Source of the DNA: a virus
Taxonomy: Duplodnaviria > Caudoviricetes
IMG/VR virus record: IMGVR_UViG_3300033067_001218
Location: 1-41,040 of that record
Reading direction: 5' to 3' (one strand)
DNA length: 41,040 nt
Both the position numbers and the translations under genes were made by a program. The first letter of the stretch is position 1. The number at the start of each line of letters is the position of its first letter. Positions 3,630 through 33,804 of this stretch are shown here, piece after piece. The notes below the pieces were generated by a model. That model did not search any database. It was not told the DNA's origin and worked only from the letters and a program-made list of their open reading frames with translations.

Positions 3630-4796
3630 CTAGTGTTGGTTAGTAAGCTTTGCTAAACCTCTTCGCTTTCCGCAAAGAAGATTTCCATAGTACTTCATAG
3701 TTGCCTGGTTCAATGTTGTTCCAGAGAGTGGAAGCAATACACCAGAGATACCACGATCCATAAATTGAAGTGGAGCAAGTTTCTCAAGAGAAATTGCATC
3801 CCAATCTATGAAATACATAGTGTCGATCTGACAGTCAATATCAGCTACTACCGGAATGTTATCAAACATTACAGCCTCTCCAAATCCTCCATCAAGCTTC
3901 ATAGTATTTACGAATCTCTGTGCTGCCACATTAACTCTCTTGTACTTGTTGAAAAGCTCAAAAGAAGTGATGATCTGTGAACATCTTCCGTACTTATCTA
4001 CTTCTGTTTTAGCAGTTCTCATCAAATCCTCCATGATAACAGCATCTGTGTGTGTTACCGCTGTGGAATTTACATAAGATTTCCACCACCAGTTAGTAGA
4101 AGCATTGATTCCTTCAAATGTTGTTGTGAAAGAAGTGTCGTCTGCTGCAAGGAATAGACCGTTCATATCTGCTGAACCATCAGTTTTCACTGCTGTTTCA
4201 TTTGTAGCTACCGTTACTGCCGCTGTTACTGTAAATGTAGTAGCAGAAATTACGTCTACAACTTGTACTGCATCACCGTTAATAGTGAGCTTCTGGTTAG
4301 GAACGATATACTTTACTGAATCTACAGTGATAAGAGTAGAAGTGGAAGAAGCTGCTACTGTAGCAAGTTTTCCAGTTCCATCTCCAAACAACTGTCTATT
4401 CATATCCTTTGCAATATCTTTCTTAAGATTGTCTGTTTCATCTGTAAGAGCAGCAATGATAGCAGCTCGTGTAGAAGAAGACTCTTCAATTGCACGGTCA
4501 TCAATATTGATGTTACCGTAGATATATGCAGCAGCTACTTGGGCTTGAGATCTGTGCTGTCTACCAGCTTGTGGAAGCGTTGTAGCACTCGCAGAAAGAG
4601 AGGCAATACCTTCATTTCTTCCAGTTCGTACTGTTTGGTAGATAACATTGTTTGCAAACCCGTTACGCTTATCCTTTGGAATTTTGTTCAAAAGGTATGT
4701 TTCGTTTTCTAGCTGATTGTCGACCATTGGAGCAATATCCTTTTTAAGGATTTCGCTCAATACTGATGTTAAGACATAGTCTTGTGTATACGCCAT
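3630..4796 (-). CDS. Major capsid protein
   Basis: 388 aa; portal-scaffold-capsid order; HK97-type motifs (KDMNRQLFGDGTG, FDNIPVVADIDC, MKYYGNL); followed by a terminator. Confidence 0.88.
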   Translation of the reverse strand: MAYTQDYVLTSVLSEILKKDIAPMVDNQLENETYLLNKIPKDKRNGFANNVIYQTVRTGRNEGIASLSASATTLPQAGRQHRSQAQVAAAYIYGNINIDDRAIEESSSTRAAIIAALTDETDNLKKDIAKDMNRQLFGDGTGKLATVAASSTSTLITVDSVKYIVPNQKLTINGDAVQVVDVISATTFTVTAAVTVATNETAVKTDGSADMNGLFLAADDTSFTTTFEGINASTNWWWKSYVNSTAVTHTDAVIMEDLMRTAKTEVDKYGRCSQIITSFELFNKYKRVNVAAQRFVNTMKLDGGFGEAVMFDNIPVVADIDCQIDTMYFIDWDAISLEKLAPLQFMDRGISGVLLPLSGTTLNQATMKYYGNLLCGKRRGLAKLTNQH

Positions 4797-4837
4797 GGTA
4801 TAAGATAATTGAGTGTATAAATTGTCTAGTCATTGTT

Positions 4838-5635
4838 TTAGTCCATCATTGCTGCCATTTTCGCTACCATATCAGCTCTAAACTTTGGGTCGTTTACGCC
4901 TGAGTAGACTGGTTTATTCGGAGTTGATGGCACTTTACCTCCGGATTCCGTATATATTTTCTTCTGACCGTGTTTTCTTTGTGCGATTTCGTAGTCAATC
5001 ATTGCTGTCTGATTAATTTCCTTAAATGCACTTACAACATTAGTAGATCCAGTCTCCTGCATATACTTAGTAAGCGCAGATACAGAGTTTTCATCAAACT
5101 TTACATTCCACTTACCAGCAAGATCTTGTACTTCTTTCACTTGATTTTGAAATTTACTTTCAAATTCTTTTTGTTGTGAAGTCTCAGCAAAACGTGCCTT
5201 AAATAATTCGTCCGCTTCAGCTCTAATAGCTTCTTTCATATACGGAGTCATATACTTTGCAGCCTCTTGAAACTGACGTTTTTGCTCTTCATCTAATCCA
5301 GCAAGTGGATCTGAAGTTGTTTCAGCTACTCCATACAGTTTTTTTGCCTCCTCATCACGACGTTTGAGTTCCGCAAGCTCTTGTCTACTTTGCGTATATC
5401 CTTTGTTAAGCTCTTCAAGACTTTTGAGTTTTTGCTCTAATTCTTGAGTTGTGTATTCACGTCCGCCAACATTGATTCCGCTTGGAGTAGTAGATGCCGC
5501 TCCCTCACTTCCTTGCTCGCTTGCTCCAACTTTTGGAGTGCTTGGCGTAGAAGGTGTGTTGTTTTCTCCACTGTCTGAAGTTGCTCCACCCGGAGTAGAC
5601 TGATCATCATAAAATGGATGAAATTTTCTGAACAT
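4838..5635 (-). CDS. Capsid scaffolding protein
   Basis: 265 aa; disordered N-terminus, coiled coil with KGYTQSRQELAE; lies between portal and capsid. Confidence 0.78.
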   Translation of the reverse strand: MFRKFHPFYDDQSTPGGATSDSGENNTPSTPSTPKVGASEQGSEGAASTTPSGINVGGREYTTQELEQKLKSLEELNKGYTQSRQELAELKRRDEEAKKLYGVAETTSDPLAGLDEEQKRQFQEAAKYMTPYMKEAIRAEADELFKARFAETSQQKEFESKFQNQVKEVQDLAGKWNVKFDENSVSALTKYMQETGSTNVVSAFKEINQTAMIDYEIAQRKHGQKKIYTESGGKVPSTPNKPVYSGVNDPKFRADMVAKMAAMMD

Positions 5636-5783: not shown

Positions 5784-7592
5784 TTACGCTGCACCTATAG
5801 CCGTGGCATGTTGTGTAAGATCAGCAAGTGTTTGTTGTTGTTGTTTAATTCCGTCTAACTGTCCTTGTTGTGCAAGAGCTTGGTCTTGCTGTACTCCTTC
5901 CGTAGCAATCTTAGCAGCAGCAGCTTCTTTTTGCTCAGTCTCCATTCTCTCAATTAGCTCTCTAATATTTCCTATCTTATACGCATCCAAGACAGTCTCT
6001 TTATCAATAAGTCCTGCTTTAAATAACTCCATTGCTTCCGCCTTTGTTTGTAACTCTGAGAATACACCTGCTGTTACTATATTTACCACCACTCCCGGAA
6101 CATCATCAATAATAGTTTCTCCAAACGCCTCATGCTGTGGAACATTTTCTCGTTTTTCATCGAGGTCTGCTCCTTGTACACCTCCAATTCCTCTCACTTT
6201 ATATGCCTTAGTTTCCGTGCTAGTATTCCCAGATATAACACGTGGCTCTGTATAGTTTGCTGCAATCATTTCTAGAACCATAGCGAATAATAGTCCTGCT
6301 GAATACTCTAAATTATCCGTTGGTTCTCCAACTGACTGTACTTGTTGCGCTTCAAGCTGTGAAATAGCTACTCCACTCACATTAGATTTTGCGATTTGTC
6401 CTAAATCAAATGACTGTATTCCTCCTATTTCTCCCATATATCTCTCTGTATTTGCTATTTGAGAGAATACTTCTTGTGGAAGTGGAGATGTATTCATTGG
6501 TTCCGGTCTCTCTCCTGTATATTCTAGTATTTGTCCATGCGCTCCAGTAGATGCAGTCACAATCTTTCCACCTTTCTTATTAAGGTATCTTCCTACTCCC
6601 ATCGTTCCTATATATTCCTCTACAAAAGAATAGAGAGCATCAAGTGCTTTATTAAGACTAATAATATCAGCAAACCAAGGGCGAGTATACGTCTCTCCAA
6701 GACCTTCCTGTGGGTAGAGTAATACAAAAGGGTATTTATCGTAGTCATATTCTTCCTCTCTCACGATAATTTCACCGATATAACTTGTACACTTCATACT
6801 CTCTTCTTTCGTATCTGTTTCATTTACCTTTTCCCATAACTCATGAAGAATAAGTGAATCTTCATCTGCTGTCTTTGCAAATTTAGAAGCAAGAAATCTT
6901 TCTCGGAAGTCAGAGTCAGCCATCTTATTCTCTGATACGCACTCTGAAAGATTTTTATATTTCCCAGTAGATTCTAAATATTTTCTGCTTGTTAAAATAG
7001 ACTTCAATACAAACCTGCTGTCTTGTACCTCTCCTTTACAATCAGGATCAAGCAATATTTCATATGGAGAAAATATCTCTACCTTTACATCATCTTCTTT
7101 TTCACACCAAGAAACTTGCGCAATACCAACACCATAACGGAGTCCATATCGAACCCATCTCTTAAACTTCTGCTTTAGGTTTTGCTTTCTATACACATGT
7201 AAGCATAAATGCTGTTGTACAGATGCTTGTTGACGTGCTGCTGCTATTTCTTCCGGAGCTGCGTTAGGAATAACATCCGGACGTATATTGAACGCAGGCT
7301 CGTTCTTATTAATCATATTTACTACTCCTCTCTCCTTTGAACGTATTAAGTTCACAGTACGTTGTATCTTTCCAGATTTTTGTATTGGAACCGTAAGAAC
7401 TTCTCTTGTAGCCTTATTAAAGACTACGAAATGGTTTCCATCCATCATATAATCTAGCTCCATCCAAAGAGCTTCTTGTTTTACACGAAAGTCTTTTGCA
7501 GCACTTACCATTTTCAACTTCGTCTGACTAACTCGTGCGGGTAACTCACTAGTTGGGTCTTGAACCTTTTCTTCTGTTTTCGTGTAATCCAT
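5784..7592 (-). CDS. Portal protein
   Basis: 602 aa just downstream of TerL; podovirus portal-like motifs (RTVNLIRS, YGVGIAQVSW, FSPYEILLDP, KYPFV, SGVAISQL). Confidence 0.87.
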   Translation of the reverse strand: MDYTKTEEKVQDPTSELPARVSQTKLKMVSAAKDFRVKQEALWMELDYMMDGNHFVVFNKATREVLTVPIQKSGKIQRTVNLIRSKERGVVNMINKNEPAFNIRPDVIPNAAPEEIAAARQQASVQQHLCLHVYRKQNLKQKFKRWVRYGLRYGVGIAQVSWCEKEDDVKVEIFSPYEILLDPDCKGEVQDSRFVLKSILTSRKYLESTGKYKNLSECVSENKMADSDFRERFLASKFAKTADEDSLILHELWEKVNETDTKEESMKCTSYIGEIIVREEEYDYDKYPFVLLYPQEGLGETYTRPWFADIISLNKALDALYSFVEEYIGTMGVGRYLNKKGGKIVTASTGAHGQILEYTGERPEPMNTSPLPQEVFSQIANTERYMGEIGGIQSFDLGQIAKSNVSGVAISQLEAQQVQSVGEPTDNLEYSAGLLFAMVLEMIAANYTEPRVISGNTSTETKAYKVRGIGGVQGADLDEKRENVPQHEAFGETIIDDVPGVVVNIVTAGVFSELQTKAEAMELFKAGLIDKETVLDAYKIGNIRELIERMETEQKEAAAAKIATEGVQQDQALAQQGQLDGIKQQQQTLADLTQHATAIGAA

Positions 7593-7943: not shown

Positions 7944-10166
7944 TCAAGATCTGCCCCACTGATCTAGTAATCGACGTGCCTCTTCGTCTGAATTAGCACC
8001 ACCATTCTTAGCAAATTCCTCACGGTCTTGTTTTGCGTATTCATCGTTCGTTATATGTACATTTACGGTTAAGTCTGGAGCTAATGTACGAGACATAAGG
8101 AAATATCGGACGCTGTCACAGTTGCGTACTAAGATTCCGTTTGCATAATAACAATGTTCATTCTCTACTGTTAGATTGTATACGTCTTCGTTTCCGGAGT
8201 TCAGACGCTTTACAATTTTGATGGCAAAATCTGCTTCTTTGATTAAGTATTGTCTGATATACCTTACCGCACCACTCACATATTTTATCAATTCGTTGTC
8301 TATTTTTCTGTATTTCTCGCATATGTTTACTGTGCCATTCTTTTCCTTCTTTTGATGCGTGCCATTCTTTTGTAAGATCTCGGATCGAATTAAGATTTTT
8401 ACGTATTTTTTCACGAAATTCCACACGCTTCCAATTTTTTCTAAAATGGTCAATACTATGTTGAGAAGCTGATATACACTCAAGATTAGAAATATTATTA
8501 TTTTTCCTATCGTGGTCTTTATGGTGGATGTGATGTTTTGCAGGAATTTCCCCATTATAAAAAATCCATACTGCTTGATGAAGTCTTTTCCTCCCATTTT
8601 TACAGCCTCCAATAGGCGAGAAGTAGTGACCGTCCCAGTTGTATTTATGACCGTCGAATACTTGTTGTTCCATACACAAATACTATCGGAATATCTAAGC
8701 TCGTCAATAGATACAATACCTCTTGTAGTAAATACTTTATGATCCTTTGTTCCTCGTAAAATAGTTCCATCTGAGAAGAGACAAGAAACTATAGGTGCAT
8801 TTATGCGTGATAGTACATGTGATTCCACTCTTTGTTTTCCTAATGGTGTAGCTACATATTCTCCCTTGAGTGTTATATCTCGAATTTGCTTCGTTGTACC
8901 ATCAGCCATACGTATTTCAGTGTCTCCAGTGAGACAAGCGTGGTCGTTTAGCTTCACAGGCTGATCCGCATCATTTAAATCTGTCTTCTTTTCTTTCCAT
9001 CGATAATTTCGTAATTCTTTCTCAAGTTGAGGACAACACCCCTCAAATATAAATAATTTAGGAGATCCTTTTTGACCCGTAATTGGGTGTATTCTATTTG
9101 GATCTACACGTATGTACTCAGCCATTCTATTAATACCTGCTAAAACATCATTATTTGCCCGTGTGAAGTTTCCAATCCCATGTTCTTCATATTCATCCAC
9201 TACAGAGTATGCTACCGATCTCATAGCAGACTGAAGGTTTTTATTAAATATACTTGGATCAGCAATGATAGAGACAGTTGGTTGTTGTCTCATATTTTTT
9301 ATCCACGGAGCATGATTCGCAATAATGTCTTTTCCTTTATAGTATTCATTTACGATATATACATTCCCTTCTGTATCAATACGGTACACATAAAAAGCTG
9401 TTGGATTATTAGCTCCATGATCTAACGAATATCCAAAACCCCAATCAAATGGAATATCAAACGGTTTGATAATATTATTTTTTCCGAAATCTTTGAATAT
9501 TAATCCTGCATAGTGCATTGGAATACATTCCAACTCTTGCATCATCACGCTTTCATCTCCTTCGCATTCTTCTCGAATTTCTTGGATGTCTTTTTCAGAA
9601 AGTAGCTTAGTCTTCGATGCGGGGAAGAGGAAAGAAGCACGATCTTCTCCTTGTAAGAGATATTGCTGCCAGAGATGATTTTCCCCCTTAAGAGTTCCTG
9701 TGAATGTAACACCACCTCCTGTAAAAGATCCATCAGCCTGTCCAATGATTGTGTAGCGGAATACTGTTTGCCACCCGGTAGGGTCATGATCCGAAAATTC
9801 GTCCATACCAAGCCAATCAAACTGCGCACCACGATGAGGTTCGTAGTTATCCGATCCAATAAATTGGAGAATAGATCCATTTTTATAATAAATTATTAAA
9901 TCAGATTCATTTTTTTTCTTACAAATAGCATTTACTGCATACTTCCCAACAATACCACCAAGCCAATAAATAGATCGAGCCTGTTTATATTCTGGACAAA
10001 CGATCGCATAACGTCCCGGCTTTAATAACGCACGTCGCTGAATGTCGTTAAACATAAAGATCGATTTTCCAAATCGTCTATGTGCGACTAAGGTAATATA
10101 TCTCGCTTTAGAGTTATGTACTTCTTTTTGAAAGCTCCGTGGTTTGTACGGTACAATAACGTCCAT
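7944..10166 (-). CDS. terL: Terminase large subunit, intein-containing (468 aa after splicing)
   Basis: Walker A AHRRFGKS, Walker B WLGMDE, nuclease SLDHG; splicing restores NDHA-CDSVRY. Confidence 0.95.
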   Translation of the reverse strand: MDVIVPYKPRSFQKEVHNSKARYITLVAHRRFGKSIFMFNDIQRRALLKPGRYAIVCPEYKQARSIYWLGGIVGKYAVNAICKKKNESDLIIYYKNGSILQFIGSDNYEPHRGAQFDWLGMDEFSDHDPTGWQTVFRYTIIGQADGSFTGGGVTFTGTLKGENHLWQQYLLQGEDRASFLFPASKTKLLSEKDIQEIREECEGDESVMMQELECIPMHYAGLIFKDFGKNNIIKPFDIPFDWGFGYSLDHGANNPTAFYVYRIDTEGNVYIVNEYYKGKDIIANHAPWIKNMRQQPTVSIIADPSIFNKNLQSAMRSVAYSVVDEYEEHGIGNFTRANNDVLAGINRMAEYIRVDPNRIHPITGQKGSPKLFIFEGCCPQLEKELRNYRWKEKKTDLNDADQPVKLNDHACLTGDTEIRMADGTTKQIRDITLKGEYVATPLGKQRVESHVLSRINAPIVSCLFSDGTILRGTKDHKVFTTRGIVSIDELRYSDSICVWNNKYSTVINTTGTVTTSRLLEAVKMGGKDFIKQYGFFIMGKFLQNITSTIKTTIGKIIIFLILSVYQLLNIVLTILEKIGSVWNFVKKYVKILIRSEILQKNGTHQKKEKNGTVNICEKYRKIDNELIKYVSGAVRYIRQYLIKEADFAIKIVKRLNSGNEDVYNLTVENEHCYYANGILVRNCDSVRYFLMSRTLAPDLTVNVHITNDEYAKQDREEFAKNGGANSDEEARRLLDQWGRS
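8121..8936 (-). mobile_element. Intein (272 aa, TerL residues 411-682)
   Basis: Block A CLTGDTEIRMADG, block B GTKDHKVFT, block F/G DVYNLTVENEHCYYANGILVRN, +1 Cys. Confidence 0.95.
8158..8673 (-). CDS. HNH homing endonuclease encoded out of frame inside the intein
   Basis: RLHQAVWIFYNGEIP..HIHHKDHDRKNNNISNLECIS..H (HNH_3 type) plus C-terminal CEWC...FCHQNC zinc motif; ATG at 8673, different frame from TerL. Confidence 0.9.
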   Translation of the reverse strand: MEQQVFDGHKYNWDGHYFSPIGGCKNGRKRLHQAVWIFYNGEIPAKHHIHHKDHDRKNNNISNLECISASQHSIDHFRKNWKRVEFREKIRKNLNSIRDLTKEWHASKEGKEWHSKHMREIQKNRQRIDKICEWCGKVYQTILNQRSRFCHQNCKASELRKRRRIQSNSRE

Positions 10167-10236
10167 ATATGGTAGTGATTTATAACATACTTATACTATA
10201 TATATTTCTATTTAAATTACAATTTAAGAAAAACTC

Positions 10237-10264
10237 TTGATTTTATGTAGTATATGTATATTAT
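10237..10264 (+). promoter_or_regulatory. Sigma70-like promoter of the first plus-strand cassette
   Basis: TTGATT-N16-TATTAT; overlaps TATGTAGTATATGTAT, which is also at 17029. Confidence 0.6.
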
Positions 10265-10378
10265 GTATCTGATTCTGCATTTAACAAACTAACAAATGAT
10301 AACAATCCTCCTTCTTCTCTTTTGCTCAGAAGAGAAACACACAAAACCCAACTATCTTACTTTCTATTTTTACTAACG

Positions 10379-10933
10379 ATGAAAAACATACTTGTCACCG
10401 GAAGCTACAGCGTAGGCAAATCTTCCGTTGTGGATGATCTAGAGCAAAAAATCCCCTATGAAAAACGAATCATCACGCAAGACACAGCACGTTTCTACCT
10501 TAGAAAAAAAGGTCTCAATTCCAATGATCTCACCGAACAACAGAAAATAGAACTGCAGACATTTGTGATTGCTTCCTACGTTGGCGCAGTGATGCAAAGC
10601 GAACACTCTCGCATCATGGGAGTGATGGACGGGTCATTGATAGAAGCATGTGCATATAGTGAAGGATTGCCCCTAGGAGAAGCCTTGAGAGATAAAATGT
10701 ATGAATACCTGTCTGACTATAGAAATCACTCTGTGGCCTATGTAATACCTCCCACGATACCACTTGAGAATGACGGACTACGACATAACGACAAAGAGTT
10801 TCGCATAGTCATTCATCAGAAGATCATGGAAATAATAGAAGCATTTAATATCCCGCATCATCTTGTGAGCTTTCAGAGTATTGGGTATCGAGCTGATGAG
10901 ATACTACATACGCACAAAACTAAATTCGCATAA
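10379..10933 (+). CDS. P-loop NTPase / nucleotide kinase-like protein (AAA_28/NadR-type)
   Basis: MKNILVTGSYSVGKSS Walker A, DGSLIE, PLENDGLRH; ATG at 10379. Confidence 0.8.
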   Translation: MKNILVTGSYSVGKSSVVDDLEQKIPYEKRIITQDTARFYLRKKGLNSNDLTEQQKIELQTFVIASYVGAVMQSEHSRIMGVMDGSLIEACAYSEGLPLGEALRDKMYEYLSDYRNHSVAYVIPPTIPLENDGLRHNDKEFRIVIHQKIMEIIEAFNIPHHLVSFQSIGYRADEILHTHKTKFA

Positions 10934-11084
10934 TGGAACAATTAAAACCCGTACAAGACCGACAAGATTTTCTCGTGATGGAACTGAACGCACGAACAGA
11001 TCAAACGAAAGAGCATTCTCCCTACAATGAAGAGATCTTGAAGGAATTGAAAGCACTGAATATTTTACTTAATTATTTTCTTAT

Positions 11085-11363
11085 ATGAGCAACGAAAAAC
11101 AGAACTTCGAGGGCGGTATTATCTACCCACAAAAAGACTGGGAAGCATTCCTGAAAACAAAAGGAGTTACACAGGAATGTATTACTCACGTCCTACAAAA
11201 CAAGTGCGCCGAAGATTTCAAAGTTGAGAAAGAAGAAGGAGTCTTGCGAGTTTGTAAGCATAACCAAAACAAAGACTCTGTGAAACAAGGACTACGCATG
11301 ATTGCAGAACTACGAAACAGCACAACGCTTGTTGTAGAAGATGTGTGTGCTAGCCATATTTAA
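11085..11363 (+). CDS. Hypothetical protein
   Basis: 92 aa ORF with a pyrimidine/AT-rich leader like its neighbours. Confidence 0.7.
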   Translation: MSNEKQNFEGGIIYPQKDWEAFLKTKGVTQECITHVLQNKCAEDFKVEKEEGVLRVCKHNQNKDSVKQGLRMIAELRNSTTLVVEDVCASHI

Positions 11364-11391
11364 AGAGTAGTTTCGATCTTTTACATACAGG

Positions 11392-11506
11392 GCTGGGGTG
11401 GCGGAAGATAGACGCTACAGGACGTAGTAACAACGAGCGTAATGGAAAAATCGTCTCAATGTACGCATCAGAAGTTACATGCAGGTATCGAATCCTGCCC
11501 CCAGCA
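11392..11506 (+). ncRNA. tRNA-like RNA 1 (115 nt; Leu-type D-arm, no canonical anticodon arm, long extra arm)
   Basis: Acceptor GCTGGGG/CCCCAGC+A; D-arm TGGCGGAAGATAGACGC; T-arm GCAGG-TATCGAAT-CCTGC. Confidence 0.8.
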
Positions 11507-11514
11507 ATTTATAC

Positions 11515-11676
11515 GGTGAGATGGCGGAATAGGTAGACGCATCACAACTAGAAGGGAGTATAAAGAAAGAGCGCTTTGTGGGTATCACCTAACGAACTAG
11601 TGGCGTCCTGTAGCCCGTGTTATCCGGGAGAACAAGTTATACTCATGTAGTGTGCAAATCACTACTCTCACCACCA
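11515..11676 (+). ncRNA. tRNA-like RNA 2 (162 nt, encoded CCA, long inserted domain)
   Basis: Acceptor GGTGAGA/TCTCACC+ACCA; D-arm TGGCGGAATAGGTAGACGC; T-arm GTAGTG-TGCAAAT-CACTAC; insert closed by GAGTATAA/TTATACTC. Confidence 0.82.
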
Positions 11677-11680
11677 ATAC

Positions 11681-11751
11681 CGGGGCGTAGCTATAAGTTG
11701 TAGTTAGAGGTCGCGCCTCTAGAGATAATTAACGCCTATCCGCCCCGACCA
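11681..11751 (+). tRNA. Degenerate tRNA-like gene (71 nt, possible CGC anticodon, non-canonical T and D loops)
   Basis: Acceptor CGGGGCG/CGCCCCG+ACCA; stems GCTAT/GTAGT, TAGAG/CTCTA, GATA/TATC. Confidence 0.6.
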
Positions 11752-11782
11752 CTTACTTTTACTTAACTTATCCTTTATAACA

Positions 11783-12010
11783 ATGGATACATTCAGAGTA
11801 ACACCGACAGAATTGACCGAGTATCAAACCACTACAGTAGCCAGTATTAAAGAAGCAGCTATCTTACTAGCATCTGTGATTCAGTATGGAAGCGACCAAA
11901 AACCTAGCGATTTAATTAATACTGACACTAGAGAGAAAGCACTTGCCATGACAAAACTAGAAGAGGCTGTTATGTGGGCAGTGAAGGGATGGACTAATCC
12001 AGAACTCTAG
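11783..12010 (+). CDS. Acb2/Tad1-like immune-signal sponge protein
   Basis: 75 aa helical hairpin with REKALAMTKLEEAVMWAVKG signature. Confidence 0.72.
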   Translation: MDTFRVTPTELTEYQTTTVASIKEAAILLASVIQYGSDQKPSDLINTDTREKALAMTKLEEAVMWAVKGWTNPEL

Positions 12011-12125
12011 ACACATAAAAGACCCGAGTTTGTAGAAAACTTGAGTCCTTATGAATAGATACAACAACAATTTACACTTCCTATTTCGGATTACAACTAC
12101 TTTTACTTAACTTATTAAAGACAAT

Positions 12126-12332
12126 ATGAAAAAGCCAATAATGCAAGAACGCCCGTTTGATCTCGATCTCAAGAAAGTACTACAGCATTACTTCAAAGAA
12201 GTAGACGAAACCGGATATAATACAGCAGATGACGACTTTGAACACTGTGTATTTGAGGAAGTGATGATGGCTTACTATGGAAGAGACGTGTTTGATTATC
12301 TAAACAAGAAAGATAGCGAAGAGACAGAGTAG
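12126..12332 (+). CDS. Small acidic hypothetical protein
   Basis: 68 aa ORF, D/E-rich. Confidence 0.7.
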   Translation: MKKPIMQERPFDLDLKKVLQHYFKEVDETGYNTADDDFEHCVFEEVMMAYYGRDVFDYLNKKDSEETE

Positions 12333-30099: not shown

Positions 30100-33000
30100 T
30101 TATTTAAATATTGCTTCTGCTGTATCGAGTGCTTTTTGTTGTTCTTCAGCTGAATTATACCGCTGTCCTTTGATTAAGTAAATGAGTCCATTCTTGAAGT
30201 CATACGGACTAAGACCTTTTGCTTTCTCTACCGCAATTTTCTTATACTTCTTTGCTGATTCAATATCTCCACTCTTTGCAGCCTCTAATGCTTTTGTGTA
30301 GTTATCATATGCTTCACGTGAGTTCACTACAGCTTGTGTAGATGATGCTTGTGTCTGCTTATCTATGTTTTGTAACGCATCAATCTCAGGCCCAGCTAAC
30401 TCCATTTTTCCTTTCAATGCAAGAGCAGTATTATCAGCCTGTTCCGGTGTAAGACTATTAAGTAGATCGTCTAATTCTTTACTCTTCGCTTCGATCTTCG
30501 CAGCATTTCCGGGTATATCGCCTTGTTGCTGTAATGCTAAGACATCTGCTTTGATTTGTTTTACCTTTAACGCAGTATCTACACCCACTTTTGCATCTCC
30601 CGTTGTTTTAGAACGTGTGAATATTTTCAATGGTAACTCTAATGCTTTTAATCCACTCTTTATTGGATCTTCACCATTCATCATCTTAGACGCACCTAAA
30701 ATATATGGGTGGTTTACTTTCCCAAATACGTATTTAGCTATATCTCCTACCGCACCTTGTAGTGTAGCAGTCTCTCCTTTTCCCACATTATCAGCCGTTT
30801 GGTAAATTGGTTTTCCAGAAAAGTCTGTATTTGTTCCTAAATCTTGTGCAACTTGCCCTCCCACAGAAGAAAACGAAGATAATGCTTTTACAGCTCCAGC
30901 AGGGTCAATATGAGCAAGTGAGTTTCCAGCTTTTACTAATGCTGTAGGAATACTCTTCATGCCCGGCATCCACTCTAATTCCCAATCAGTACCATCACCA
31001 CGAGGAACAAGTAAAGACCCCCATTTATTACTTGGATTGTTTATCATTAAATTGCCTGTGAGCTTCAACTGTGCAGCATTCATAATTGCATATGTCATAA
31101 TTGCACCAGCAACTAATCTTCTATTCATTTTATACGCAGGATTTTTTATCTCTGTAGACACCGATTTAAGCGCATTTCCTAATGTGCTAATCATCGCTTC
31201 TTTAAATCGAGGAGCTAAGAATAGTGTATTAAGAAGGTTTTGCATATTAACGCTTCTTCCGGACGCATTAGGATCTTTCATATTAAACGTCTTACCTACC
31301 GTTTCCCCTGCTAATTTTTTAGCTTCTTCATATGGCATACCTTTCTTTACAGCAGCATCTCGTAAGTCTATATACATACCACGTATTATTGATGGCATTA
31401 CATCTCCAAATGTTGATTTGGCAGAATTTTGGAAAATATTATCCCACGTCCACTTACCTTTCTCTAATAATTGCTTTCCTGTATTTAACAGTTTTTCTTT
31501 TACAGTTCCATCAGCAGTTCCTTGATGTTTTGGCGTATTAAGGTATTGCTTCTCAAAATCAGCAGAAGATGAAATAACTTGCCCTAACTCTGCTAGTTCT
31601 TTATCTGCAATTCTATTTTGAGGCTCTTTATGTTTCGCAATATTTACTTCATCTCCTCGTAATGTAGCACGGGCAATATCTTTCAACACTTTAGGTCTAC
31701 CCATCATTAGAGCATTATTTGCCTGTAATGTCACATACGAGTTAATACCCTTATATCCTCCCGCAAGTATAATATCTGTTATGCTTTTATTTGCATCACC
31801 GGTAAATTGAAGAGCAGCGTCTCCTTCTTTATTAAAAGCTTTTTCAAGAAATTTAGCTATATTCGGAGGTGCCATCATGTCAGCAGGTATACCGGGAACA
31901 TTAGGGTGTTTCCAATTATTACCATATTCACTTCCTCGTACTCGTTCACCCGGTAATAGTAGTTTTTCTTCAATAAGTGAGTTATAAAATGCTTTATTTG
32001 CTTTCGCTTTTCCAGCCTCTGTAACTAATTCTCCAATATATGGAGCAGGATGAGAATACTTCTTTGTAAGCCCCATACTTTCTGCTGTTCTATAATCTGG
32101 AATTACTTTATTTTTTGCGAAGAATGGTACAGTTCCAACTCCCTTACTCTTCATTATTTTCATAACCTCTCTCGCACCATCTGCATAAATACCGGGGAAA
32201 TAGTTTGGTATATCTCCTACTTCTACTCCTGTAGCACGAACTTGGTCTCTCACAGGATCTATGTTGTTCTTACGTAACTCCTTCACGATATTTAAAGCAT
32301 TTGTAAAATCAAACCCATGTTTTGCGGCTGTTTCTTTATCTGGATGTTGAATAAAATCTATAAATGTATTACCTACTCTCGCACGTTCTGCACGTAGTTG
32401 TTTTGGAGATAATTTATCCACATTAGGTATAAGTGGATCTACTACCGTATCTAATTTATCTGCCGCTATATTTCCCTCACTTTTTGCGACAGCTAGATCT
32501 TTTGCTCTTTGCGCAAACGCTTTTTGTATAGGTTCCGGGAGTTGTTTTTCAGGGAATAATTTATCTACAACATACCCTTTTATGCCACTTCCAGCTATTT
32601 GTTGATCTCGTAGTGTGGCATCACGTACATCATTCTTACTCGCTTCTGTGGCAGTTGCACTTTCTCTCTGTCTCTGCATAAAGTTGTTGTATGCTTCCTC
32701 TCCTCCTTGACCTGCTCTTGTTGGTTCTGATTTAGACAAACTATCAAACTCTAAAACATCGTTTACAGTTGTATCTGCTTGTTGTTGTTCTTTCTTACTT
32801 TTTGATTTTTTCACCTCTGCATTAGCTTCTTTAACCGCTTTCACAATATCCCCTAATGGCTTAATAGGATCTGCACCACTCATCATAGTTGTTTTTGTAG
32901 GCAGATAACTTTTCTCTAAACTAGACAATAATGCAGCTCTTGCTTCCGGAGTTTTTGCAATATCATAAATGCCTTTCATTCCTTTTACTCCTGTTTTTGC

Positions 33001-33804
33001 AGATAATCCTACAGCGGCTCCTAATGCTGTCTGACCTCCTAAATCCACCACCTCACCAAGTTTATCAGCTTGTTCTTGTCCTATAATATTACGAATTGCT
33101 GTACCCGGTTCTGCAATAAACTCGCCCGGAGTAGCACGTCCAGAATAAAACCTTCTTGCATCCTGCCCAAGTTCTCCAATTTTATTGAAAATACCTTCTA
33201 CTCCTTTTGCTACAGGAGCAACATTAGATTTATCGCTAGACAATGCCTCTAATGCACGAGAAAGAACAGCACTAGGGTACTGCATACCAATATTTAACCC
33301 AGCAGCGGTGGTAGGTAATACTCCTTTCCCAACATCTTGAGGATTTGAAGGTCTTCCACTAAATAAATTTGTAACTGCTTTTCCTGCATTCTGTATATTA
33401 GGGTCGTTTGCTGCTTTGACTACTTCTTTTCCAACATTTGTCGCCCCCTCAATAGCTCCAGAATAAAGAGCGTCCGGTAGACTACCTCGTATTCTTTGTG
33501 TCTGTAGATTGAGTAATGTATCTCTTACTTTACTAAAAACATCTGCTTTTTCACCAGTTTGCGAATCAGCACTTTCTTCTTTCCCAGTTGGTTTAGAGAT
33601 TGTAGTATTTTTCACCTTCGCTTTTGCAAGACTAGCAGCAAACGCCTCATTCTGCTTCTGTTTTGCAATCTCATTTGCTCTTTTTTGTTGTTCAAGTGCT
33701 TGACTCACTTGTTTTAACTTCAAAAGAGACGATGGATTTGTCGCAGTAGAAAGCGTTTGTCCAACCTTACCCGGCAAGTTAGCCAGTGTATCAAAGAATC
33801 CCAT
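30100..33804 (-). CDS. Large internal virion / DNA ejection protein
   Basis: 1234 aa, A/K/G-rich and helical; last gene of the tail block, as in podoviruses. Confidence 0.65.
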   Translation of the reverse strand: MGFFDTLANLPGKVGQTLSTATNPSSLLKLKQVSQALEQQKRANEIAKQKQNEAFAASLAKAKVKNTTISKPTGKEESADSQTGEKADVFSKVRDTLLNLQTQRIRGSLPDALYSGAIEGATNVGKEVVKAANDPNIQNAGKAVTNLFSGRPSNPQDVGKGVLPTTAAGLNIGMQYPSAVLSRALEALSSDKSNVAPVAKGVEGIFNKIGELGQDARRFYSGRATPGEFIAEPGTAIRNIIGQEQADKLGEVVDLGGQTALGAAVGLSAKTGVKGMKGIYDIAKTPEARAALLSSLEKSYLPTKTTMMSGADPIKPLGDIVKAVKEANAEVKKSKSKKEQQQADTTVNDVLEFDSLSKSEPTRAGQGGEEAYNNFMQRQRESATATEASKNDVRDATLRDQQIAGSGIKGYVVDKLFPEKQLPEPIQKAFAQRAKDLAVAKSEGNIAADKLDTVVDPLIPNVDKLSPKQLRAERARVGNTFIDFIQHPDKETAAKHGFDFTNALNIVKELRKNNIDPVRDQVRATGVEVGDIPNYFPGIYADGAREVMKIMKSKGVGTVPFFAKNKVIPDYRTAESMGLTKKYSHPAPYIGELVTEAGKAKANKAFYNSLIEEKLLLPGERVRGSEYGNNWKHPNVPGIPADMMAPPNIAKFLEKAFNKEGDAALQFTGDANKSITDIILAGGYKGINSYVTLQANNALMMGRPKVLKDIARATLRGDEVNIAKHKEPQNRIADKELAELGQVISSSADFEKQYLNTPKHQGTADGTVKEKLLNTGKQLLEKGKWTWDNIFQNSAKSTFGDVMPSIIRGMYIDLRDAAVKKGMPYEEAKKLAGETVGKTFNMKDPNASGRSVNMQNLLNTLFLAPRFKEAMISTLGNALKSVSTEIKNPAYKMNRRLVAGAIMTYAIMNAAQLKLTGNLMINNPSNKWGSLLVPRGDGTDWELEWMPGMKSIPTALVKAGNSLAHIDPAGAVKALSSFSSVGGQVAQDLGTNTDFSGKPIYQTADNVGKGETATLQGAVGDIAKYVFGKVNHPYILGASKMMNGEDPIKSGLKALELPLKIFTRSKTTGDAKVGVDTALKVKQIKADVLALQQQGDIPGNAAKIEAKSKELDDLLNSLTPEQADNTALALKGKMELAGPEIDALQNIDKQTQASSTQAVVNSREAYDNYTKALEAAKSGDIESAKKYKKIAVEKAKGLSPYDFKNGLIYLIKGQRYNSAEEQQKALDTAEAIFK

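Follow-up and report, generated by a model that had tools for sequence, protein, structure and literature searches.

Phages T4 and T5 encode small, stable, tRNA-like RNAs, and we know of no function that has been assigned to them since they were annotated. Here we describe a family of RNAs that combine the framework of tRNA-Leu with a variable insert, starting from two members, RNA1 (115 nt, 11392–11506, + strand) and RNA2 (162 nt including an encoded CCA, 11515–11676, + strand). Both lie in a virus sequence of 41,040 bases (Duplodnaviria; Caudoviricetes; IMG/VR record IMGVR_UViG_3300033067_001218), referred to below in its full length as the window, and both were delineated from sequence, minimum free energy (MFE) folding and a covariance model, R1. 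Each has a shell of tRNA-Leu type (acceptor stem, D-arm and T-arm) and no anticodon arm, and by their predicted structure the family RNAs cannot decode codons. We put at about 0.55 the probability that RNA1 and RNA2 belong to a family of phage and prophage shell RNAs that are processed and stabilized by the host like tRNAs and display the insert as an exchangeable effector domain. Within this reading, family membership and architecture can be held with high confidence, and the role of the insert as an effector is tentative.

The closest known RNAs are RNA1 and RNA2 of T5 (AY543070, misc_RNA 30501–30644 and 32959–33083), annotated as 'tRNA-like stable RNA with unknown functions' and located among the phage tRNA genes on the same strand. 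In T5 RNA1 the D-arm is Leu-like (GCCGGAAUUGGUAGACGG), roughly 70 nt of insert occupy the place of the anticodon region, and the T-arm adjoins the 3′ strand of the acceptor stem. T5 RNA2 has acceptor and T-arms and an insert with a second T-loop-like hairpin, as in some members of the family described here. They differ from it in their ordinary 5 bp T-stems with UUCAACU or UUCGAAU loops, in lacking the UGCAAAU loop and AU junction, and in their host, E. coli; R1 matches T5 RNA1 marginally (16.9 bits, E = 0.014) and T5 RNA2 not at all. Family members are also found within tRNA clusters, the placement seen in T5 (e.g., in phage Goe3), unlike the window, in which ARAGORN found no canonical tRNA. 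The T4 species 1 and 2 RNAs (rnaC and rnaD; AF158101, 70908–71171), likewise small and stable, are encoded where the T4 tRNA cluster ends and on its strand, and rnaC ends in a canonical T-arm (CCGGG-UUCGAAU-CCCGG), but R1 gave no match to them at E ≤ 1, and neither a Leu-type D-arm nor a clean 7 bp acceptor stem was seen.

Several other RNAs share parts of this design. Skipping-rope (RF02924, 'tLRNA-1') is a bacterial non-coding RNA (ncRNA) whose crystal structure is that of an L-shaped tRNA mimic, but the window RNAs differ from it in being plain tRNA-Leu in sequence and connectivity. The Rfam models for skipping-rope, DUF2693-FD and salivarius-1 gave no match in the window, in 20 family loci (at the gathering score) or in 6 loci (at E ≤ 5), and the analogy with these mimics is one of concept. 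The tRNA-like domain of tmRNA has an acceptor and T-arm, ends at the acceptor, carries a large domain in place of the anticodon region and does not decode, and a reading of the window made from its letters alone (the sequence-only reading) had proposed mini-tmRNAs. tmRNA, however, lacks a D-stem and contains pseudoknots and a reading frame for the tag. The shell RNAs have a complete tRNA-Leu D-arm and inserts that can be as short as 8–23 nt, and both the ARAGORN tmRNA search and Rfam were negative, which speaks against that proposal. Canonical phage tRNA-Leu(UAA) is probably the evolutionary source of the family, given its identical 19 nt D-arm region, 7 bp acceptor stem and U8 G9; its anticodon arm, usual variable arm, 5 bp T-stem and UUCGAxU loop are all missing from the family. 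The same design logic is said to underlie the engineered tRNA scaffolds of Ponchon and Dardel for recombinant RNA, in which a structured RNA replaces the anticodon arm and is reportedly processed and stabilized like a tRNA. Those are laboratory constructs, whereas in the natural family the variable region is replaced as well, and the T-loop has a signature of its own.

Architecture of RNA1 and RNA2

RNA1 is framed by a fully paired 7 bp acceptor stem (GCTGGGG, 11392–11398; CCCCAGC, 11499–11505) with a discriminator A at 11506, and does not encode CCA. U8 and G9 precede the D-arm, GCGG-AAGATAGA-CGC (11401–11415), which has the same stem as that of RNA2 and a shortened loop (AAGAUAGA as RNA) without GG. 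An 11 nt linker (11416–11426) leads to a closing stem (GTAAC, 11427–11431; GTTAC, 11474–11478) that encloses about 40 nt, the stem-closed insert being 52 nt long. Directly before the T-arm, GCAGG-TATCGAAT-CCTGC (11481–11498), is an AT junction (11479–11480); the T-stem has 5 bp and the loop 8 nt (UAUCGAAU as RNA). RNA2 follows the same plan on the same strand. Its acceptor stem (GGTGAGA, 11515–11521; TCTCACC, 11666–11672) is also paired at all seven positions, and is followed by A (11673) and an encoded CCA (11674–11676), giving the 3′ end ACCA. After U8 G9 comes a full Leu D-arm, GCGG-AATAGGTAGA-CGC (11524–11540; AAUAGGUAGA as the RNA loop), then a 15 nt linker (11541–11555) and a closing stem formed by inverted repeat I7 (GAGTATAA, 11556–11563; TTATACTC, 11637–11644; GAGUAUAA/UUAUACUC in RNA letters), which encloses 73 nt of an 89 nt insert. 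The AT junction (11645–11646) again directly precedes the T-arm, GTAGTG-TGCAAAT-CACTAC (11647–11665), which has a 6 bp stem and the loop UGCAAAU. Neither RNA has an anticodon arm, nor are there complementary stem halves flanking the inserts.

All of the features listed in the sequence-only reading (acceptors, discriminator A, D-arms, linkers, closing stems, AT junctions and T-arms) were confirmed at their positions; absent from it were the encoded CCA of RNA2 and a third tRNA-like RNA, RNA3 (11681–11751), described below. Unconstrained MFE folding returns the scaffolds of both RNA1 and RNA2, and RNA1 is more stable than its shuffles (z = −3.60). The combined D-arm/junction pattern occurs once in the window, compared with a mean of 0.00 in 100 shuffles. 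Folds of the whole intergenic region were unremarkable on both strands (z = 0.01 and −0.51). ARAGORN, one of the checks that the sequence-only reading had proposed, called no tRNA or tmRNA gene at the array, and Rfam 15 gave no match at gathering score in the whole window and none at E ≤ 10 within 11300–11800, so that neither RNA1 nor RNA2 is called by these tools.

Family members in viral contigs

A pattern combining the D-arm with the linker of RNA1 led to a single metagenome contig, L006. It shares with RNA1 the 5′ acceptor strand GCTGGGG, U8 G9, both D-stem strands and the following TACAGGACG, and with RNA2 the D-loop, the AU junction, a 6 bp T-stem (CUAGGG/CCCUAG in L006) and the UGCAAAU loop, while its insert of 96 nt is unrelated. 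It scores 55.9 bits with R1. A consensus-like promoter (TTGACA-17 nt-TATAGT, 398–426, recognized by eye) lies 31 nt before the 5′ end of the L006 RNA, and suggests that this RNA may be an independent, strongly transcribed unit.

The 19-mer D-arm word TGGCGGAATAGGTAGACGC, common to RNA2 and L006, was used to search viral contigs and matched at least 120 loci, with approximately 1700 estimated for the collection. ARAGORN called 20 of the 121 loci examined (120 from viral contigs, and L006) as canonical tRNA-Leu, with anticodons UAA (17), CAA (1) and UAG (1) and one odd call, and these have 5 bp T-stems and UUCGAxU-type loops. The remaining 101 were not called. A strict test required a perfect T-stem with the acceptor strand immediately behind it and at least 6 of 7 acceptor positions paired; of the 101, 74 passed and 27 failed, some of the latter having a second insertion inside the T-loop. 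Such T-loop insertions are found in L034, L044, L085, L089, L102, L123, L125 and L126 (around position 400 or 300), between GGUG and CAAAUCC, and often begin with ACUAUACGAG and end with CUCG(G/U).

The 74 members are uniform in their shell: acceptor pairing is 7/7 in 65 and 6/7 in nine, a 6 bp T-stem with a 7 nt loop is present in 67, the loop is TGCAAAT in 55, and AT precedes the T-stem in 64. The 20 canonical tRNA-Leu genes that share the D-arm lack the UGCAAAU loop, AU junction and 6 bp T-stem. The discriminator is more variable, with counts of 32 for A, 19 for U, 15 for C and 8 for G. Three members have an encoded CCA, and the insert ranges from 8 to 199 nt with a median of 78 nt. Another tRNA is located within 400 nt in 39 of the 121 viral loci, and tandem family copies occur in L054 and L093. 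At gathering score, Rfam models detected only neighboring ordinary tRNAs in 20 family loci, with no intron or ribozyme family. At E ≤ 5 on six loci, the 76 nt member L013 reached 26 bits on the tRNA model, below the 29 bit cut-off. A different kind of armless tRNA-like RNA adjoins a family member in L009 (141–198, + strand); this 58 nt element has 4 nt instead of the whole anticodon arm and scores 44.8 bits on the Rfam tRNA model.

The sequence-only reading had offered intron-containing tRNA-Leu genes as an alternative, with the inserts spliced out to leave decoding tRNAs. tRNA-Leu(UAA) genes are hosts of group I introns in some bacteria, the family has the same D-arm as phage tRNA-Leu(UAA) genes, and the intron mode of ARAGORN can be made to call RNA1 and RNA2 at lowered thresholds and calls seven of the 101 non-canonical viral loci at default. 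At the window array, however, intron mode (-i) was negative at default and with -ps, and with -ps90 and -ps80 it forced Cys and Gln models in which the D-arm is misplaced. Neither anticodon-stem halves nor a Leu anticodon loop are found beside the inserts, each insert abuts the T-stem through the fixed AU, and no intron or ribozyme family of Rfam was matched in the window at E ≤ 10 or in the 20 family loci at gathering score. Group I introns are far longer than the 78 nt median insert. The inserts of L084 (8 nt, the entire distance from D-arm to T-arm) and L013 (23 nt) are too small to contain an anticodon arm and a variable arm. With these observations the intron explanation is hardly credible.

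Covariation of the scaffold and the model R1

The scaffold stems are maintained by compensatory changes in many unrelated phages and prophages. An alignment (A1) was made of 51 members with distinct shells and inserts of up to 66 nt, chosen for fully paired stems. Changes on both sides of the pair were observed at all seven acceptor pairs and at four of the six T-stem pairs, with up to six pair types per position, and the D-stem never varies because it was fixed by the search word. The covariation score was 0.688, compared with 0.156 in 500 shuffles, none of which reached 0.688, and sliding the partners by 1–3 columns reduced it to 0.05–0.12. The existence of many homologous loci with covarying stems and unrelated inserts bears out the family of tRNA-scaffolded cargo RNAs that the sequence-only reading had put forward. 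A DNA-level attP-like site was also considered, and was rejected on finding both halves of the acceptor stem present and covarying.

R1 was built from A1 with the window sequences excluded, a covariance search that had also been suggested beforehand, and it recovered the window RNAs as well as family members in viral contigs and bacterial genomes. Its only matches in the 41 kb window were RNA2 (50.0 bits, E = 1.7e-10) and RNA1 (41.2 bits, E = 2.5e-8). Canonical tRNA-Leu genes with the same D-arm scored 35–46 bits and clear members 50–92 bits, so the score alone does not separate the family from tRNA-Leu, and membership rests on architecture and on the homology to L006. Judged by sequence features, RNA2 qualifies as a member by its architecture (no anticodon arm, AU junction, 6 bp T-stem, UGCAAAU) and RNA1 by its specific homology to L006.

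Decaying or neutral relics, i.e., functionless pseudogenes of phage tRNA-Leu that have acquired insertions, would also show a tRNA-like outline, and several observations point in that direction: the D-loop and T-loop of RNA1 are degenerate, neither RNA2 nor the intergenic region as a whole has an exceptional fold energy, the RNA slot differs between close relatives, and almost all inserts are unique. The perfect 7 bp acceptor stems of both window RNAs and the family-wide compensatory changes that keep the acceptor and T stems are not expected of relics. Nor is a signature of AU junction, 6 bp T-stem and UGCAAAU that the 20 canonical tRNA-Leu genes sharing the D-arm do not have, or an insert class that temperate phi3T has in common, at 75–82% identity, with Goe3-like lytic phages (see later), and we regard this explanation as very improbable.

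The inserts and their exchange

The diversity of the inserts contrasts with the constancy of the shell. The 159 inserts of at least 20 nt form 133 clusters, 118 of them singletons, and neither window insert matches any other. They are nonetheless more structured than shuffled sequences, with an MFE of −16.0 compared with −14.3 kcal/mol (Wilcoxon P = 6e-10), and a stem closes the 3′ end of 78 out of 136 inserts, compared with 34–43 of 136 in shuffles. The 5′ linker that this leaves is most often 11–13 nt long, in line with what the sequence-only reading had noted at the window array, and a 3 bp stub hairpin within it was not enriched (48 of 136 inserts, 31–51 of 136 in shuffles). In one insert class, with four members, internal helices are kept by compensatory changes. 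Many inserts contain a second, canonical T-arm-like hairpin (e.g., GGUUCGAUUCC), as does T5 RNA2; examples are L018, L028, L030, L033, L042, L045, L092, L099, L117 and L006. The possibility that inserts act as antisense regulators of nearby genes was rejected, as their matches to their own flanks are no longer than those to the flanks of other loci. The longest complementarity between the window RNAs and the rest of the window is 10–11 nt, which is unremarkable.

Close relatives of the window locus were represented by contigs from the sequencing runs of several studies, each covering part of the region. One further run, X1, contains the entire stretch without any difference and may be where the window comes from. 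In runs X6, X7 and X9 the open reading frame (ORF) upstream of the array is about 90% identical and similarity ends at 11358, just before the RNA slot, while other contigs of X2 and X5 diverge exactly at 11391. A 417 nt contig of X2 retains the flanks of the RNA1 shell (11366–11417 and 11477–11506) and has a different insert: at the joint 11417/11477, 59 nt of the window (11418–11476, + strand) are skipped and 79 unrelated letters stand between. The shell thus stays constant while its cargo is replaced, which also supports the cargo proposal. Beyond RNA1, this contig has 104 other letters in place of 11507–11661, and then matches 11662–11769 (the 3′ end of RNA2, RNA3 and beyond) with five differing letters and one gap. 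The four changes listed by position are all in or just after RNA3, and one of them, A11728G, turns the A·C mismatch of its T-stem into a G-C pair. A small contig of run X7 shows the converse arrangement, with the RNA1 insert (11409–11461, one indel) behind another 5′ part, GCAGAGAUGGCGGAAUUGG. A variant of RNA1 in run X7 has AAUUGG in its D-loop. Together, the new insert in the same shell in X2 and the same insert with another 5′ part in X7 indicate that shells and inserts are reassorted among close relatives.

Members in bacterial genomes and named phages

A pattern consisting of the D-arm, a gap of 50–80 nt and then ATGNNNGGTGCAAATCC was used to search a collection holding one genome per species. 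It matched 84 loci, mostly from Bacillota according to their titles (Paenibacillus, Bacillus and relatives, Lactobacillaceae, Clostridia), and a few from Saccharibacteria and other metagenome-assembled genomes. All seven acceptor pairs are formed in 66 of the 84, and one locus encodes CCA. A is the commonest discriminator (48 loci), ahead of U (27), G (5) and C (4). Within a single family of bacteria, that of the L193 genome, R1 matched 17 of 151 genomes at E ≤ 1e-8, the seed genome included.

Members are also present in well-known phages, none of them annotated as RNA. In SPP1 the RNA (NC_004166, 6647–6756, + strand; L216; 82 bits) is between gene 9 and the scaffold gene 11, and overlaps 'gene 10' on the minus strand (6525–6734). 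The record notes that the protein sequence of this ORF conflicts with its conceptual translation, and it is probably not a real gene. The main text of the SPP1 re-annotation paper has no occurrence of 'tRNA' or 'ncRNA' (PMC6316719). The phi3T member (50191–50331; 57.2 bits) comes after yonO- and yonN-like genes, that of Goe3 (52.3 bits) is inside a tRNA cluster and has counterparts in other SPO1-like B. subtilis phages, and a further member is found in phage KLEB27-1. The phi3T element, including its insert, is 75–82% identical to those of the Goe3-like lytic phages, which are otherwise unrelated and infect the same host. An identity with ncRNAs of Listeria prophages was also considered. Phage phi10403S has the ncRNAs lasRNA, rli140 and rliG (PMC7397523); in phage A118, R1 had no match in the parts searched, namely the first 6 kb and the final 6.8 kb.

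Family RNAs lie on the coding strand, either among clustered tRNA genes or where a late or structural operon begins, and the recurrent neighbors in the genome loci are all on the strand of the RNA. A late transcriptional activator is found about 0.3–0.5 kb upstream of the RNA (two clusters, of 13 and 6 loci), and downstream are an HNH endonuclease (16 loci) and the terS, terL and portal genes; in SPP1, L143 and L162 the downstream gene encodes a scaffold protein. Pfam searches of the 150 immediate neighbors mostly returned nothing, with sigma-70 region 4, DUF1492, HNH and scaffold proteins among the matches. In the Levilactobacillus brevis prophage L193, the ORF downstream of the RNA (4423–5280, + strand) has a ThsA Macro domain (Pfam, 176.8 bits), and a Thoeris-type defense gene thus adjoins that RNA. 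A terminator-like site on the sense strand follows the RNA within 200 nt in 29 of 80 loci, compared with 8 of 70 and 1 of 70 control windows, 9 of 81 upstream regions and 7 of 80 on the antisense strand.

This setting bears on an explanation in cis, in which the shell is punctuation, an RNase P/RNase Z cleavage signal or a structured end within polycistronic transcripts, while the RNA itself is a by-product and the insert a tolerated expansion. The coding-strand position at module borders (from the late activator to HNH, terS and terL, before the scaffold gene in SPP1, L143 and L162, and after yonO/yonN in phi3T) is what would be expected, as is the lack in the window of a promoter-like site directly upstream of the array and of terminator-like sites in 10100–12200. 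Hypervariable inserts, some of only 8–23 nt, also fit a weakly constrained region. For punctuation, however, an acceptor/T minihelix would be enough, with no need for a Leu-type D-arm and UGCAAAU loop to be kept across unrelated phages, and tandem arrays like that of the window would be redundant. The inserts are more structured than shuffled sequences, with helices kept by compensatory change, and the terminator within 200 nt in 29 of 80 loci and the L006 promoter suggest independent units. On balance we consider cis-acting punctuation unlikely.

The discriminator counts bear on another alternative, a chargeable mimic of tRNA-Leu. As a minimal substrate of leucyl-tRNA synthetase (LeuRS), the RNA would be leucylated and would titrate LeuRS or EF-Tu, donate leucine to a non-ribosomal acceptor, or report the supply of the amino acid. 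A study by Larkin et al. in 2002, cited in PMC2377443, reportedly concerned minimalist tRNA-Leu substrates. The shell has U8, A14, G18 G19, C56 and a regular acceptor helix, A73 is present in both window RNAs, and RNA2 has CCA. According to PMC2377443, bacterial LeuRS depends critically on A73 and on the core contacts U8-A14, G18-U55 and G19-C56; the paper also reports that A73 substitutions lower leucylation 45–143-fold, and that the anticodon arm is dispensable for charging, its deletion cutting affinity only 2.5-fold. The remark in the sequence-only reading that LeuRS largely ignores the anticodon therefore stands in principle (PMC2377443). In the family, however, only about half of the members have A73 (32 of 74 viral and 48 of 84 genomic) and position 55 is G rather than U in most, which alters the critical G18-U55 contact. 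RNA2 itself has A73, U8, A14, G18 G19 and C56 but G55, and RNA1 has A73 but no G18 G19. Acceptor-stem sequences vary freely, and the 6 bp T-stem makes a 13 bp acceptor/T helix. A LeuRS mimic is, then, quite improbable.

The locus in the window

Among the genes of the window, which has an estimated completeness of 55%, are those for phage head, portal, terminase, RecT and tail proteins. The RNA array occupies a 419 nt gap between two ORFs, all on the + strand. The upstream ORF (11085–11363, 92 aa) is about 90% conserved in relatives, and further upstream is a gene for a 203 aa AAA_28 P-loop protein (10322–10933, + strand). This protein weakly matches thymidylate kinase and nicotinamide-nucleotide adenylyltransferase in PHROG and may have a role in nucleotide or NAD salvage. 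The downstream ORF (11783–12010, + strand, 75 aa) begins 32 nt past RNA3 and contains an Acb2/Tad1 hairpin domain (Pfam PF24729, 48.3 bits, cut-off 27, E = 1.2e-12), a domain found in phage sponges for immune signaling nucleotides. It is a candidate sponge of this type, and had no match in PDB by sequence. The array is thus flanked by an AAA_28 P-loop gene on one side and an Acb2/Tad1-like gene on the other, which suggests an accessory or counter-defense locus without proving one; PADLOC gave only weak matches to the neighboring genes (E ≥ 0.0008).

RNA3 (71 nt, 11681–11751, + strand) is an aberrant tRNA-like RNA, delineated from sequence and its fold (z = −3.65), that starts 4 nt after the CCA of RNA2. 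It has a perfect 7 bp acceptor stem (CGGGGCG/CGCCCCG), the 3′ end ACCA and an anticodon-like hairpin with the loop GUCGCGC. The T-stem has 4 bp with an A·C mismatch, the D-loop lacks GG, and both the D-loop and T-loop are non-canonical. ARAGORN called it only in its metazoan-mitochondrial mode, as mtRNA-Ala(cgc), and it was not matched by R1; by these features it is placed outside the Leu-shell family.

RNA1 and RNA2 are perfectly complementary over 11 nt (repeat I3), between the end of the RNA1 D-arm with its linker (11414–11424) and the RNA2 insert (11604–11614), both on the + strand. This pairing is present in the MFE fold of the whole intergenic transcript, and inverted repeats of at least 11 nt occurred in 34 of 2000 dinucleotide shuffles of the 419 nt intergenic region (P ~ 0.017). 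It could reflect a contact between the two RNAs or chance. In the X2 relative both partners are replaced. Weaker complementarities (I1, I2 and I5; 71–82%) exist between the RNA1 and RNA2 inserts and the start region of ORF 11783.

The virus itself is distant from those in the collections searched. A blastn search with 11300–11800 found no match in phage records, the best tblastn identity of the large terminase in phage records is about 24–25%, and no close relatives of the large terminase, the major head protein or the 92 aa ORF were found in the viral contigs scanned, nor of the large terminase in the metagenome contigs scanned. A 23-mer of RNA1 was absent from the viral contigs searched and the RNA1 pattern from the genome contigs searched.

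Processing, function and significance

If RNA1 and RNA2 are shell RNAs displaying an exchangeable insert, their life cycle could follow that of tRNAs. They would be transcribed together with neighboring genes and are likely to be trimmed like tRNAs, with 5′ cleavage by RNase P, 3′ trimming by RNase Z or exonucleases, and addition of CCA by the CCA-adding enzyme where it is not encoded. They would then accumulate as stable small RNAs, with a factor of the host or the phage as their target in trans. Specificity would come from the insert, while the shell would ensure processing and stability and might also offer the tRNA elbow as a surface for docking. Decoys for anticodon nucleases, one of the functions suggested in the sequence-only reading, are hard to reconcile with the predicted absence of an anticodon loop.

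A number of observations count against this reading. The members were retrieved with an exact D-arm word and selected for perfect stems, and both the invariance of the D-arm and the 99.9% pairing are partly by construction. The R1 scores of RNA1 (41.2 bits) and RNA2 (50.0 bits) are in or just above the range of canonical tRNA-Leu. The fold of RNA2 is not significantly stable (z = −0.52), and RNA1 is off-type in its D-loop without GG, 8 nt T-loop and 5 bp T-stem, and could be decaying. Substrates of tRNA enzymes do not usually have G55 or an acceptor plus T helix of 13 bp. Complementarity between inserts and their own 8 kb flanks is not in excess (mean longest match 9.02 compared with 8.85 nt, 54 loci), and the 150 immediate neighbors show no general link to anti-defense functions (ThsA Macro domain in one, Acb2/Tad1 in none). 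There are also members with inserts of only 8 nt (L084) and 23 nt (L013), and the shell itself, rather than the insert, may carry the function.

A bolder interpretation, which we consider doubtful, is that of a modular phage RNA toolkit. The non-decoding tRNA-Leu shell would be a universal chassis, matured and kept stable by the tRNA machinery of the host, and folded cassettes, recombined between the conserved shell halves, would serve as aptamer-like effectors or decoys in phage–host conflict. The position of the array beside an Acb2/Tad1-like sponge gene would then be explained by the part that the cassettes play in this conflict. If true, the toolkit would be an RNA counterpart of protein anti-defense islands.

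No description of the family was found in the full-text literature, a search that covered neither subscription-journal papers nor supplements, and an earlier description is possible. Since the family is outside Rfam 15 and is not called by ARAGORN, its members have been left blank or under doubtful ORFs, such as SPP1 'gene 10' and phi3T_57. Compared with the stable RNAs of T4 and T5 it is much larger and sharply defined, with an estimated thousand or more copies in viral contigs. It is patchy but frequent in prophages of Bacillota and is present in the tractable model phages SPP1, phi3T and SPO1-like phages, and the existence of members in phages of B. subtilis makes the question of their function directly testable. 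A conserved shell combined with near-unique cassettes points to trans-acting phage RNAs of a new class or else to tRNA mimicry put to a new use.

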